A DNA stretch of 64,000 bases from Escherichia phage vB_EcoM_KAW1E185. Positions within the stretch are counted from its first letter, which is position 1; every line of letters starts with the position of its first letter. Shown in pieces: positions 8,639 through 36,857 of the stretch. The notes under the pieces were generated by a model. The model saw nothing but the letters and a program-made list of their open reading frames with translations. It made no database searches and was not told the origin of the DNA. The position numbers and the translations under genes are program-made. The stretch lies in sequence record NC_054922.1, one strand, 5' to 3'.

Positions 8639-9109
8639 TTAATCATGTTTCCACACCCCATCGGTATTTGACCAAAGTCGCTGATTATCTGATCCTCGCC
8701 ACAGCTTTTTAGTCGGAAGATTTTTCTCATACTTCCCATCAATAATAACATCAACATATTTAAGCATTTCTAGTTGTTTAATATCTTCAAACTTATATCC
8801 TGTCCACAACCAAATGCTTTTATTGGGATAAAGATTTTTTACTGTTTGAACAATGCAATGAATAACATCTTGGTTATCAGGATAGAGAGGGTCACCTCCG
8901 GTTATAGTTAATCCTTCTATATAATCATTATTCAAACATTCAATTAATTGTTCTAGTGTTTCACCAGTGAATGGAATACCATTTCTAGCATTCCATGTTG
9001 ATTTATTATAACACCCTTCGCATTTATGCAAACAACCTGTAACGAAAAGAACGACCCTGCATCCAGGGCCATTCACAAAATCGCAAGGATAAAATCTATC
9101 ATAATTCAT
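8639..9109 (-). CDS. nrdG: Anaerobic ribonucleotide reductase activating protein (radical SAM)
   Basis: 156 aa; Cys cluster CLHKCEGCYN; upstream of nrdD. Confidence 0.9.
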   Translation of the reverse strand: MNYDRFYPCDFVNGPGCRVVLFVTGCLHKCEGCYNKSTWNARNGIPFTGETLEQLIECLNNDYIEGLTITGGDPLYPDNQDVIHCIVQTVKNLYPNKSIWLWTGYKFEDIKQLEMLKYVDVIIDGKYEKNLPTKKLWRGSDNQRLWSNTDGVWKHD

Positions 9110-10923
9110 TGGTGTTTAACCCTATGCATGATTTCTTTATTTTTACCGAGATTAAATCCGCGTTCGTTCGGATTTCCCAAATAACCACATGTTCTTCTTA
9201 TTGTGTTCATCTTTTTAGGGTCAGTTTCTCCACAAATAGAACAAACAAATCCGTTTTCAGTAGGAGTCATTTCATGGGTACTTCCACACGTAAAACATTT
9301 ATCTACTGGCATATTAACACCAAAATAATCTAAATGTTGTGCAGCATAATCCCATACGGCCTCAAGACCTTTTAAGTTATTTTTCATATCAGGAAGTTCA
9401 ACATAAGAAATGTGGCCGCCTGTCGCAATGAAATGATATGGTGCTTCGCGAGAAATCTTTTCAAACGGAGTAATATTTTCTTCTACTGAAACATGGAAAC
9501 TGTTAGTGTACCAACCTTTATCGGTAACATCCTTTACACTTCCATATTTTTCGGTATCGAGTTTACAGAAGCGATAACAAAGGTTTTCAGCAGGAGTAGA
9601 ATACAAGCTAAAAGCAAAACCGGTTATTTCAGTCCACTGTTTAAGATGAGCATTCATTTTAGTTAAAATTTCTCGTCCAATATCACGACCGACAAGAATA
9701 TTCAATTCGTGAATACCAATGTATCCCAAAGACACTGAACTTCTACCGTTTTTAAATAACTCAATTATGTCGTCATCAGGTTTAAGACGAACCCCGAATG
9801 CACCTTCTTGGTAAAGAATAGGAGCAACAGTAGCTTTAACTCCTTTTAAGGAACTAATTCTACACATCAAAGCTTCAAAACATAAATCCATTCGTTCATT
9901 GAATAATTCAACAAATTTCTGTTCATTGAATTGTGTTCCAATATAAGAATCTAACGCAATGCGAGGAAGATTCAGTGTTACAACACCAAGATTATTACGT
10001 CCATCAAGAATTTCATTACCAGTCGAATCTTTCCATACGCTCAAGAAGCTGCGGCAACCCATTGGAGAAACAGGAATAGATGAACCAGTGATAGCTTTAT
10101 TGTTCTTAGCTGAAATAATATCAGGATACATCCTTTTGCTTGCACACTCTAGAGCAAGCTGTTTAATATCATAGTTCGGATCGTCTTTATAAAGATTAAC
10201 ACCTTCTTCAACAAACATAACAAGCTTAGGGAAAATAGGAGTTATCCCATCACGACCAAGACCTTTAATACGATTTTTCAGAATTGCTTTCTGAATCATT
10301 CGTTCAGTCCAGTCAGTTCCCGTACCAAATGTAATTGTTACAAAAGGAGTCTGTCCGTTTGAACTAAAGAGAGTGTTTACTTCATATTCGTAAGCTTGAA
10401 ATGCATCGTATACGTCTTTTTCTGTTTTAGATTGAGCATAATTCAACGCATCAGCGATTTGCCATTTTTCTGCATCCTCAATATGTTTTGCATAGGTGCG
10501 TTTAACATAAGGAGAAAGTACTTTATCTACATTCGCAAAAGTCGTTCCGCCGTATTGGTGAGAAGCAACCTGTGCAGTAATTTGTGCCATAATTGCAGTA
10601 GCAACGCCAATTGATTTAGGAGTTTCAATCTGTGCATTACCAAGCTTAAATCCGTTCTCAAGCATTCCTTTTAAATCTACTAAACAACAATTAGTAAATG
10701 GAAGAGCAGGGGAATAATCAATATCGTGGAAATGGATAATTCCGCTTTCATGCGCTTTCATAATAAAAGACGGGACCATATTTTTGGCAATGTGTTTAGA
10801 CACAATACCAGCCATAAGGTCCCGTTGAGTTGGAAAAACACGAGAATCTTTATTAGCATTCTCGTTTAAAAGGTCTTTATTAGTTTTATGAATCAATCCT
10901 TCAATTTCTTTTTCAATTGTCAT
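9106..10923 (-). CDS. nrdD: Anaerobic ribonucleoside-triphosphate reductase (glycyl radical enzyme), uninterrupted
   Basis: 605 aa; C-terminal RRTCGYLG glycyl-radical motif and CxxC pairs. Confidence 0.95.
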   Translation of the reverse strand: MTIEKEIEGLIHKTNKDLLNENANKDSRVFPTQRDLMAGIVSKHIAKNMVPSFIMKAHESGIIHFHDIDYSPALPFTNCCLVDLKGMLENGFKLGNAQIETPKSIGVATAIMAQITAQVASHQYGGTTFANVDKVLSPYVKRTYAKHIEDAEKWQIADALNYAQSKTEKDVYDAFQAYEYEVNTLFSSNGQTPFVTITFGTGTDWTERMIQKAILKNRIKGLGRDGITPIFPKLVMFVEEGVNLYKDDPNYDIKQLALECASKRMYPDIISAKNNKAITGSSIPVSPMGCRSFLSVWKDSTGNEILDGRNNLGVVTLNLPRIALDSYIGTQFNEQKFVELFNERMDLCFEALMCRISSLKGVKATVAPILYQEGAFGVRLKPDDDIIELFKNGRSSVSLGYIGIHELNILVGRDIGREILTKMNAHLKQWTEITGFAFSLYSTPAENLCYRFCKLDTEKYGSVKDVTDKGWYTNSFHVSVEENITPFEKISREAPYHFIATGGHISYVELPDMKNNLKGLEAVWDYAAQHLDYFGVNMPVDKCFTCGSTHEMTPTENGFVCSICGETDPKKMNTIRRTCGYLGNPNERGFNLGKNKEIMHRVKHQ

Positions 10924-28287: not shown

Positions 28288-28566
28288 TTATTCTTTAAAT
28301 CTAATCAATTTATTCATAGACTTTGAAACTTCTGCACGAACCTCATGTAGATTTTTGAGCTGTTCAAGACGCTGCGTATAGTAAGCAATTTCATCTTCTT
28401 CGAGACAGTCCTGCGAATCTTCTTTAAGATAACGTGCATAGTCCTGGAAAGCGTTACGGACTACTTCCTGGAAGTCATCAAGACTTTGAATTTTCTTAGG
28501 AGCAGCAGACACACGACGAGGGGCAGTATAATACTCATAACCAAACCCTGCGCTTAATTGAGCCAT
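28288..28566 (-). CDS. Hypothetical small acidic protein (92 aa from MAQLSAG)
   Basis: ATG overlaps stop of upstream ORF. Confidence 0.45.
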
Positions 28567-28832
28567 TAGTATTTTTCCTCTGGTTGGAACACAGCACGAC
28601 AAGCCCACATACTGGCTTCTTTGAGTTTCGTTTTAGCAATAGCTAACTGATCGAGGCTTTCAGCATAATTCTTCGCGAGTTCAAAGTCTTCGCAATCGTC
28701 CCACGCTTCCCAGAATTCATCGTATAAAGCGTCAAAGATAAGTCCTAAACGAACTTCAGCGTCTTTGATAGCATTCACTTTACCGATTTTCTCTTCAGTA
28801 TGTGGTTTATAACCCTTAATATCTTCAATCAT
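28566..28832 (-). CDS. Hypothetical small acidic protein (88 aa from MIEDIKG)
   Basis: SD GAGGAAG upstream of ATG 28832. Confidence 0.45.
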
Positions 28833-29046
28833 ATTTGACTTCCTCACCAGTACATAAATCATATTCAACTAAACGAATGGGTTCATGAATGCCATATCCC
28901 TGAACAGAAATTTCTGTCGTAGGATAAATTCCATCAATATCACCCATATTCCACGCTTCATTAAATTGCTGTTCACCTGAATTACTAAACCACTCGGCGA
29001 AAGCATTTAGCACATCTTTAGAACCTTCAATAATTATCTTTGCCAT
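28825..29046 (-). CDS. Hypothetical small protein (73 aa)
   Basis: ORF track. Confidence 0.45.
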   Translation of the reverse strand: MAKIIIEGSKDVLNAFAEWFSNSGEQQFNEAWNMGDIDGIYPTTEISVQGYGIHEPIRLVEYDLCTGEEVKYD

Positions 29047-29408
29047 TACAAACTCTCGGTGAAGGTACGAGCGATAACGTCGCGCTGCTGTTCCGGAGTC
29101 AGAGAGTTAAAGCGAACTGCATAACCGGATACACGGATGGTCAGCTGCGGATATTTTTCCGGATGCTTAACTGCATCTTCCAGAGTTTCACGACGCAAAA
29201 CGTTAACGTTCAGGTGTTGACCACCTTCAATTTTAACTGTAGGTTGTGGCTCAATTTCAATTTCACGGGCATGCAAACCATAGAAAATTTCTGGGTCTAC
29301 AAAAGAGTCCTCTTTAAAGGTTTTAGAGACAATAATTCGTGCTTGAATACCATCTTCAAAATAAATAGTACCTTTATGTGTGCCTTCAAGAATTTGATAT
29401 GCTTTCAT
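29046..29408 (-). CDS. Autonomous glycyl radical cofactor (GrcA/YfiD-like; T4 Y06I-type)
   Basis: C-terminal [29 protein letters not shown] glycyl-radical domain. Confidence 0.85.
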
Positions 29409-29415
29409 ATAAACC

Positions 29416-29796
29416 TCAATTAGAAAATAAATTTATCCAAGATTGTTCTTTAATTAAAAATGGCTCAGAATCATATGCCATTAAACTTTGCGTAATTAAT
29501 CCTTTAAAAGGTCCATCAATAAATTCCATGGTAAAATATGGAATTTTATTCATTAGCCGTGCATTAGGAGCAGTGCACAAAACTCTGCATCCTTTGAATA
29601 CGCCTTTTTGTAATTTGTATTGCTTAGGATAAAATTCACTTAAAATGTTATTTTTTGCCAAAATTTCAAAATGATTCACCAATTTATTTTTAATAGTTTT
29701 TGGTGAAAAATAAAGATATTCAAAAAGTTGCGCATCTGTCATCATTGCATTCCGATTACGAAAAACTGTGGACGAGTAATACCACCAATGCAACAT
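29416..29796 (-). CDS. Hypothetical protein (126 aa); possible 3' part of a split P-loop NTPase
   Basis: Overlaps upstream ORF by 55 nt in another frame; contains LCTAPN. Confidence 0.4.
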
Positions 29797-30281
29797 TTAC
29801 TATTACAGCAGTAGTGTACAGTGTCAATATGGACACTATAAATCTTATCCATATCAGGAGATTTGACAGGCTCATCAATTATATACAAAATTCGCGAAAG
29901 CGATAAACCTCTGAACTTGCTTCCTTTATTACCAATAAAACTGCGCACAGAATCAGTAAATAAACGAAAACGTATATCATCATTAGAATAACGCGAAAAT
30001 TCCTTTTTGATGTTATTTGCAGAAATTTTAGCGTAAGCTGAAGTATTAGAAAGAACAATAACTGTTCCGCCATCATACAACCAATTAGCAGCAAAGTTAG
30101 TCACAGCAATTGATTTACCAGATTGACGTCCACCGTCTAGTCGAAGTGTGCAGTACTGTTTAAGTAATTCTTCAAATGGCGGGATATATTCGTTTTTACA
30201 AATTTCTTCTACTCTAGCATCAGAATGGTGTGTAAAAGCATTCATCAGGGATAGATAAGGACCAGTTAAAAATGTTCTCAT
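29742..30281 (-). CDS. P-loop NTPase with terminase-like Walker A (179 aa)
   Basis: Walker A LDGGRQSGKS, Walker B ILYIIDEP. Confidence 0.5.
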   Translation of the reverse strand: MRTFLTGPYLSLMNAFTHHSDARVEEICKNEYIPPFEELLKQYCTLRLDGGRQSGKSIAVTNFAANWLYDGGTVIVLSNTSAYAKISANNIKKEFSRYSNDDIRFRLFTDSVRSFIGNKGSKFRGLSLSRILYIIDEPVKSPDMDKIYSVHIDTVHYCCNSKCCIGGITRPQFFVIGMQ

Positions 30282-30421
30282 TTCTTCTCTCTAAGTTTGG
30301 GCCATTCCATGGCGCATGAATTGTCCATTTCTGTATTTACCCATTACCGCACTTGGGCTCGACCTTATTACAGGTTGGCGGGAATCCCTCATAGAATCAT
30401 GAGGTCCAGGTTGTTCCCATG

Positions 30422-30895
30422 TTATTTGAACGATTTAACGTACTGAATAGAACCTTTACTATTCACAAAGGCAATTTTACCATTTTTGTTATACATGGTA
30501 GCAGTACGTTGATAGCCATAAGTTTGTTTACCAGATTGATAACCAACTAATGCGAAATTATCTTCACCCATTTTATTCTGCTTAGCACGAATGCGTTCAT
30601 GACCATGTGCCATAAGAACCTTAGCATCACCAGTTGCAATGGATCTACGAGTTTTTTCATCTTCAACTGTATTAACAAAGTCGTCAAATGAATCAAATTT
30701 AGCATGAGATTTATTATACAGTTTTCCATCTACTGCATAATTATATCCTTGTACATCCATCTCAACTTCTGTACCATCATCCAGTACAGCAGTGATTTTC
30801 TGTCCTTTTTTAAATTTCAAAAGATCAGTAAAAGATTCAGCAATAATTTGAGAATTAATAGCTGCTTCAGTAATAAATTCTTGATATGTTTTCAT
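30422..30895 (-). CDS. Internal-protein-like capsid-targeted protein (157 aa)
   Basis: N-terminal MKTYQEFITEA resembles the T4 internal-protein capsid targeting sequence. Confidence 0.6.
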   Translation of the reverse strand: MKTYQEFITEAAINSQIIAESFTDLLKFKKGQKITAVLDDGTEVEMDVQGYNYAVDGKLYNKSHAKFDSFDDFVNTVEDEKTRRSIATGDAKVLMAHGHERIRAKQNKMGEDNFALVGYQSGKQTYGYQRTATMYNKNGKIAFVNSKGSIQYVKSFK

Positions 30896-30954
30896 GTGTA
30901 TCCTTTAAATGTAAATATTTTAATTAATAATTTATCTCTTCAAGTAACTGTGAA

Positions 30955-30984
30955 TATACTATCACAATTCTAGGAGAAAGTAAA
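30955..30984 (-). promoter_or_regulatory. Early promoter
   Basis: Minus strand TTTACT - 17 nt - TAGTAT. Confidence 0.55.
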
Positions 30985-30989
30985 CAACT

Positions 30990-31520
<531 letters not shown>

Positions 31521-36757: not shown

Positions 36758-36761
36758 AAAT

Positions 36762-36848
36762 TGGTGGGGAGTGGTGGAGTCGAACCACCCGAGTCGCAAT
36801 GACAATGAATTTACAGTCCACACCGCTACCTCTACGGGATAACTCCCC
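36762..36848 (-). tRNA. tRNA-Tyr (anticodon GUA), long variable arm
   Basis: 87 nt; anticodon loop CUGUAAA; stem has two G-U pairs. Confidence 0.6.
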
Positions 36849-36857
36849 AAATTAATT

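Follow-up and report, generated by a model that had tools for sequence, protein, structure and literature searches.

A probable host-derived grcA tract in vs.6 (Y06I), the glycyl radical protein gene of a T2-like Escherichia phage

The vs.6 gene and its surroundings

The DNA analysed here, referred to below as the window, is a stretch of 64,000 nucleotides from Escherichia phage vB_EcoM_KAW1E185 (NC_054922.1). The gene of interest, vs.6 (Table 1), encodes a stand-alone protein of ~14 kDa with its own start, ribosome-binding site and stop, i.e. one of the small format known for GrcA; its Shine-Dalgarno motif overlaps the stop codon of vs.7, and its own stop codon overlaps the ATG of vs.5 in the string TAATG. 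An open reading frame on the opposite strand (29040..29423, +, 127 aa, TTG start) was rejected as a mechanical mirror of vs.6 that nothing supports. The scan for promoters and terminators around the gene found about as many promoter-like sites (13) as chance would give (12.7), and it is therefore uninformative on the timing of expression.

Table 1 Features of the vs.6 locus and of other window regions mentioned in the text
Feature	Position in window	Strand	Remark
vs.6 (Y06I) CDS	29046..29408	-	120 aa plus stop, ATG to TAA; phage autonomous glycyl radical cofactor
Shine-Dalgarno motif GAGG of vs.6	29414..29417	-	5 nt before ATG; read from the sequence
vs.6 nt 1-178, phage-type 5' part	29231..29408	-	residues 1-59 and first base of codon 60
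vs.6 nt 179-347, putative host-derived tract	29062..29230	-	glycyl radical domain; grcA nt 200-368, 168/169 identical
Codon GGT of Gly95, predicted radical site (RVSGYAV)	29124..29126	-	read from the grcA alignment
vs.6 nt 348-360, phage-type 3' edge	29049..29061	-	final sense codons (F T E S L); differs from E. coli at 5 synonymous sites
vs.7 (y06J homolog)	29416..29745	-	upstream, same direction; tblastn with T4 Vs.7, 99.1% over 109 aa
vs.5 homolog	28825..29046	-	73 aa; tblastn with T4 Vs.5; PHROG 1986, 1.3e-43
vs.4 homolog	28566..28832	-	second gene after vs.6; hit to the Pfam Acb2/Tad1 hairpin domain (1.9e-20)
vs.8 homolog	29742..30392	-	96.8% to T4 Vs.8 over all 219 aa
In-frame stop in vs.8 homolog	30291..30293		after codon 33
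DUF7412/ipIV-like gene	30422..30895		in the vs.8-e interval, as in T2
nrdD	9106..10923		Pfam NRDD, 9.6e-171
nrdG	8639..9109		radical SAM
tRNA-Tyr match	36759..36851		phage tRNA region

The single Pfam domain of the product is Gly_radical (PF01228), covering residues 61-101 with 66.8 bits (2.8e-18; gathering score 22.2 bits). Among solved structures the best match is E. coli GrcA (6owr, E = 8.6e-42), residues 22-120 of Vs.6 being aligned with GrcA 28-127, followed by residues 697-759 of PflB, which match Vs.6 residues 58-120 (E = 5e-26). The predicted radical site, Gly95 in the RVSGYAV loop, is aligned with G102 of GrcA and G734 of PflB. The protein further matches PHROG 1209 over positions 1-120 of 121 (1.2e-62). 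The first-pass annotation, made from the letters alone, had read the gene as a GrcA/YfiD-like cofactor, and these matches agree with it.

Concerning the NCBIfam profiles, the best match is TIGR04365 (GrcA) with 153.3 bits over profile positions 25-126, which is under the equivalog cutoff of 170 bits because the N-terminus is diverged and shorter, leaving the first ~25 profile positions unmatched; by that bacterial rule, Vs.6 is to be considered a diverged relative of GrcA rather than a strict equivalog. The profile of pyruvate formate-lyase (PFL), TIGR01255, is matched over positions 680-744 only (88.9 bits against a cutoff of 994), and an identity as PFL is ruled out, since both the catalytic barrel of ~760 aa and the active-site cysteines are lacking. 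The label 'pyruvate formate-lyase' carried by many phage records of vs.6 is thus wrong. Phage GrcA-like genes also go under the names 2-ketobutyrate formate-lyase, acetyltransferase-related protein and ribonucleotide reductase subunit; beyond the T-even phages, such genes are present in Krischvirus, Slopekvirus, Nanhuvirus, T5-like Demerecviridae and phages of Aeromonas and Vibrio.

The gene had also been recognised as a known T4 feature, Y06I, and this holds: T4 Vs.6 (NP_049730.1, annotated GrcA) is identical to the window protein at 119/120 residues (tblastn, 99.2% over 120 aa), and the order vs.8-vs.7-vs.6-vs.5-vs.4-vs.3-regB is kept in the window, T2 and T4. In the annotations this block, vs.8 to vs.3 and regB, follows e and either ipIV (T2) or ipIII-ipII-denV (T4). 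Over 3 kb around vs.6 the window is 99.6% identical to Escherichia phage 303Ecol101PP and 97.5% to phage T2. By identity and gene order, vs.6 can thus be taken as the ortholog of T4 Vs.6/Y06I in a T2-like Tequatrovirus. The annotation of a related phage names the neighbours y06K, y06J and y06G, which fits vs.6 being the Y06I of the biochemical literature.

Several neighbours deserve a short description. The vs.5 product has 73 aa here and 58 aa in T4, and T4 Vs.5 aligns to it in two pieces lying in different frames, so that the two versions appear to be a frameshift apart. The vs.4 homolog matches the Acb2/Tad1 family, which comprises phage sponges for cyclic-nucleotide immune signals (anti-CBASS). 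The in-frame stop in the vs.8 homolog leaves pieces of 33 aa and 179 aa; in the closest relative, 303Ecol101PP, vs.8 is annotated in the same short form of 179 aa. Between vs.8 and e (30282..30990) there is no denV, ipII or ipIII, unlike in T4, and tblastn searches of the whole window with denV and ipIII gave no match.

It should be pointed out that nrdD and nrdG, which the first-pass annotation had placed alongside the gene, are 18.1 kb away, with ~50 annotated genes between them in T2. Co-location or co-transcription of vs.6 with the nrdD-nrdG module is thus not seen, and a functional link by proximity was dropped on account of this 18-kb distance.

Mosaic structure of vs.6

Each of the 5,426 complete E. 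coli genomes has a grcA to which the last 185 nt of vs.6 are 96.8% identical (E = 2e-80), a nucleotide match far beyond chance. When a 24.9-kb query around the gene was compared with E. coli genomes, grcA was the best chromosomal match among the matches listed; the only other match among these was a tRNA-Tyr on an E. coli plasmid record (88%).

With vs.6 aligned to E. coli grcA from the 3' end, the gene is divided into three parts (Table 1). The first, nt 1-178, has a GC content of 0.337 and a GC3 of 0.186—GC of the whole window being 0.35—and an ungapped identity to grcA of 33-47%. The second, nt 179-347, differs from grcA at one position only, the synonymous nt 211, and the 3' part has the same composition as E. 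coli grcA (GC 0.49, GC3 0.46). The maximum chi-square scan put the breakpoint after nt 178, coinciding with the start of PflB homology, i.e. of the glycyl radical domain, at residue 58-61. The third part, nt 348-360, is again dense in mismatches (5/13 against 1/169 in the tract; Fisher p = 4.7e-6), and the state GAG AGT found there is common to Slopekvirus and Enterobacter phages. The reading frame is unbroken across the mosaic junction.

At the protein level, residues 61-120 are identical to GrcA 68-127 (60/60). The first-pass annotation had described the C-terminal ~60 residues as essentially identical to GrcA, and this is confirmed. Its statement that the N-terminal half differs was right in that residues 22-60 share only 14/40 identities (35%) with GrcA 28-67, but this half is not unrelated: the similarity is significant (BLASTP E = 5e-6), so that homology specific to the N-terminal region of GrcA is present in residues 22-60, while the first ~20 residues gave no detectable match to GrcA in pairwise BLASTP. 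Compared with Mosigvirus mogra, the phage-type 5' part shows a dN of 0.033 and a dS of 0.449 (dN/dS ~0.07); the N-terminal half, a strongly diverged GrcA homolog, is thus held by purifying selection among phages and, on the same ratio, functional. The whole gene is best described as an old, ameliorated phage homolog of grcA carrying a recent host patch, not as a fusion of unrelated pieces.

Direction, age and probable recurrence of the transfer

The alignment at nucleotide level to grcA and T4 vs.6, proposed at the outset for dating the transfer and mapping its boundary, gave the boundary after nt 178 and, over codons 61-115, a dS of 0-0.024 between the phages and E. coli (0.024 for the window itself). 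For the same codons, E. coli is separated by a dS of 0.049 from Escherichia sp. L017, 0.40 from Citrobacter and 0.57 from K. pneumoniae, and the phage tract agrees with E. coli at the two sites where E. coli and Escherichia sp. L017 differ. The donor would accordingly have been E. coli or Shigella itself, and the event very recent on the scale of enterobacterial divergence. Since the tract has host composition and since bacterial grcA is full-length, with graded divergence, in the 80 species sampled (Enterobacterales, Pasteurellaceae), the transfer is read as having gone from host to phage. A recent recombination with the host gene had been suggested by the first-pass annotation, and the host-like synonymous sites and GC3 argue for it; what had to be refined is the extent, the exchanged segment being an internal patch (nt 179-347) and not the whole 3' end.

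The same patch is widespread. A total of 637 phage records match E. coli grcA at ≥95%, always from grcA nt 199-202 onward; none of them matches grcA upstream of this point, and no phage record reaches coverage of 80% of grcA. When Tequatrovirus is compared with Mosigvirus, mismatches number 17/178 in the 5' part and 2/169 in the tract (p = 6e-4), and E. coli phages in general differ from each other within the tract at 0-4 of 169 positions. The 3' edge of the E. coli-like tract, on the other hand, occurs in at least seven mosaic states among near-identical phages and differs between the window (TTC ACC GAG AGT TTG), T2 (TTT ACC GAG AGT TTG), T4 (TTT ACT GAA AGT TTG), OES_C-2 (TTT ACT GAG AGC CTG) and Mosigvirus, E. 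coli grcA itself reading TTT ACT GAA AGC CTG. The edge of the more distant Slopekvirus, TTT ACA GAG AGT CTA, looks like the ancestral phage state.

Concerning other hosts, Klebsiella phages of the RCIP0102 type share the 5' boundary with the E. coli phages, but their tract is Klebsiella-like, that of RCIP0102 differing at 9/169 positions from K. pneumoniae grcA and at 18/169 from that of E. coli; in an IMG/VR contig (UViG_2974754850, our locus L124) the tract is 4/169 away from K. pneumoniae grcA. The genes of RCIP0102 and L124 are otherwise near-identical, most of their differences falling within the tract or beside it. GC3 in the Klebsiella phages is 0.57-0.62 in the tract versus 0.27 upstream. 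With K. pneumoniae grcA as the query—taken from a chromosome that PLSDB lists among its plasmids, and absent from the 80 genome-contig loci—106 phage records were found at 95-99% identity, only over nt 202-374. Salmonella grcA gave no phage tract above 84% identity and Enterobacter grcA only one phage record at 90-95%; the evidence for host-specific patches is thus limited to two host genera.

Two genes with irregularities were met in this comparison. In Escherichia phage vB-Eco-KMB39 (L006), a perfect 55-bp tandem duplication of vs.6 nt 171-225 (gene nt 171-280) straddles the 5' junction of the tract and frameshifts the gene, which is annotated there as two pieces of vs.6. Either the disruption is real, in which case vs.6 may be dispensable in the laboratory, or the duplication is an assembly error. 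In L124, a one-base deletion in a T run at gene nt ~122 breaks the otherwise intact frame of the vs.6 homolog, the probable cause being an error in sequencing the homopolymer.

One and the same segment of vs.6 has thus undergone no fewer than two independent, host-specific replacements. The common 5' breakpoint, the variable 3' end and the Klebsiella tract suggest repeated host-to-phage gene conversion, and the variable edges together with the discordant divergence suggest either further events or exchange between phages of differently converted alleles. The reading considered probable, although with some reserve, is that the glycyl radical half of vs.6 is a standing target of conversion, a segment with a fixed start overwritten repeatedly by the grcA of the current host, so that the homology provided by one patch would seed the next exchange and the phage copy would stay matched to the host PFL and its activase; the donors may be E. 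coli for Tequatrovirus and Mosigvirus and Klebsiella for the Jiaodavirus-like phages. T4 recombines efficiently with short plasmid-borne homologies, which makes repeated conversion mechanistically plausible despite the degradation of host DNA.

A possible, if rather unlikely, alternative is that conversion took place just once or twice—E. coli grcA entering an ancestor of the T-even phages and Klebsiella grcA an ancestor of the Jiaodavirus-like ones—with the patch then spreading among Tequatrovirus and Mosigvirus by recombination between phages and no continuing exchange with hosts. T-even phages do recombine freely with each other, and both the 5' boundary shared by 637 of 637 records and the few differences within the tract among E. 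coli phages are as this scenario would have them. It accounts less readily for the discordance between the 5' part and the tract in the Tequatrovirus-Mosigvirus comparison, for the seven or more states of the 3' edge, or for near-identical Klebsiella phage genes lying at 4/169 and 9/169 from K. pneumoniae grcA, although such patterns could also arise if phages exchanged alleles that had been converted differently.

The gene and its function were already known, and they are textbook T4 biology rather than a new kind of system. What is added here is a precise map of the patch taken from the host, together with evidence that different hosts have served to rewrite the same site: 169 nt (29062..29230) of precisely bounded host DNA would lie inside a virulent T-even genome, with an independent parallel at the same site in Klebsiella phages. 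The search of the literature for a mosaic vs.6 or for its gene conversion returned functional papers only; the host-identical tract may already be mentioned in the T4 genome review of 2003 or by Bowman et al. (2019). If the exchange continues, vs.6 would be a natural reporter of recombination between a lytic phage and the chromosome that is being degraded, and it would illustrate how auxiliary metabolic genes stay compatible with their partner proteins in the host. Were the half-gene indeed a standing target, it would represent a natural, recurrent sampling of chromosomal DNA by a strictly lytic phage that degrades the DNA of its host.

Proposed function and relation to known systems

Andorfer et al. 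(2021, PMC8683613) count no more than two spare-part proteins as validated, YfiD of E. coli and Y06I of T4. According to the account given there of Wagner et al. (2001), the PFL-activating enzyme installs the glycyl radical on YfiD or Y06I, and the activated protein forms a complex with PFL cleaved by O2 and restores its activity, both activation and rescue of PFL having been shown in vitro for T4 Y06I; the same work of Wagner et al. (2001) is cited in a 2026 review. The role of Y06I in the repair of PFL, put forward by the first-pass annotation as established biology, is borne out by this account.

It is therefore with high confidence that vs.6 of this T2-like Tequatrovirus is proposed to encode a 14-kDa stand-alone GrcA/YfiD-like glycyl radical protein that repairs cleaved PFL, its gene being a mosaic produced by host-to-phage conversion of codons 60-116. 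Given the 99% identity to T4 Y06I, the host PFL-activating enzyme (PflA) would put the radical on Gly95, and Vs.6 would dock onto a host PFL whose C-terminal radical domain has been severed by O2, so that activity is restored. T-even infection shuts off host gene expression. A host in this state would be unable to induce its own grcA, and the phage copy would supply the repair part, with the likely benefit of sustaining the production of acetyl-CoA, ATP and formate in the microaerobic gut; no report of a vs.6 phenotype was found in the literature searched. As to the DNA, codons 60-116 of an old, phage-adapted grcA homolog would have been overwritten by E. coli grcA through gene conversion, the patch starting exactly where the PflB-like glycyl radical domain starts, and it was probably renewed more than once, since the patch itself offers homology for further exchange.

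That Vs.6 has a different job, serving as a decoy for the host PFL activase or providing the phage NrdD with a spare radical domain, is improbable. The window does encode NrdD, itself with a Gly_radical domain, and its activase NrdG, and phages conserve the N-terminal half that is specific to them (dN/dS 0.07). The domain of Vs.6, however, is identical to that of GrcA and 70-80% like PflB 697-759, not like NrdD; moreover, 18 kb separate vs.6 from nrdDG, and the T4 ortholog restores PFL activity, as the account in PMC8683613 has it.

The remaining explanations concern the tract itself. That no DNA was exchanged recently, and that extreme purifying selection on the glycyl radical domain produced the nucleotide identity, might be argued from the complete identity of the protein segment and from the strong conservation of GrcA and PflB across Enterobacterales, but it is very improbable: the synonymous sites are nearly as invariant (dS 0-0.024), and GC3 rises abruptly across the boundary (0.19 to 0.46). 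In addition, the homologs of Slopekvirus (L009, L010, L012) and of Enterobacter phage Taquito (L011), compared with K. pneumoniae or E. coli, have tracts with a dN of 0 to host GrcA, while their dS is saturated (1.2 or more) and their nucleotide identity to any sampled bacterial grcA is 76-86%; constraint on the protein is thus insufficient to explain the identity of the tract. Selection for an exact match would, by the evidence of these homologs, be very strong, the GrcA protein sequence having apparently been kept for long without recent exchange of DNA.

No more credit is given to the opposite direction, in which a T-even phage would have supplied the 3' half of E. coli grcA. Identity of sequence is by itself silent on direction, yet GC and GC3 of the tract match the remainder of E. 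coli grcA (0.47-0.49) and not the phage (0.35), the bacterial gene is conserved at full length with graded divergence in all the species sampled, and Klebsiella phages carry a tract of Klebsiella type. An artefact, with host reads joined chimerically into a phage contig, is almost certainly not the cause, because the same junction recurs in 637 independent phage records, among them the reference genomes of T4 and T2 as well as contigs from IMG/VR, and the frame is intact across it.

Among the known systems, T4 Vs.6/Y06I is the closest, sharing the length, vs.7 upstream, vs.5 downstream and regB further on, as well as the 5' breakpoint of the E. coli-like tract. The window differs from T4 by R instead of H at residue 73, by the extra synonymous change at nt 211 and by an E. 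coli-like tract that ends ~9 nt earlier (TTC ACC GAG in the window, TTT ACT GAA in T4). E. coli GrcA (YfiD, 6owr) is likewise a small stand-alone protein with the same last 60 residues, the radical glycine included; Vs.6 is, however, 7 residues shorter, leaves the first ~25 residues of GrcA unmatched and has phage codon usage in the 5' half of its gene. With PflB, the similarity is confined to residues 697-759, homologous to Vs.6 residues 58-120 and having the conserved RVSGYAV loop, whereas the catalytic barrel and Cys418/Cys419 are lacking and the sequence is nearer to GrcA than to PflB; Vs.6 is a replacement part, not an enzyme. As far as other phages are concerned, GrcA-like genes built from the same two parts, the glycyl radical domain included, are found in the Jiaodavirus-like Klebsiella phages, Slopekvirus, Krischvirus, the T5-like Demerecviridae and phages of Aeromonas and Vibrio. 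In the Klebsiella phages of the RCIP0102 type, the place of the E. coli tract is taken by one derived from Klebsiella, whereas the other lineages hold no recent host-identical DNA, being 76-86% identical to any sampled grcA.
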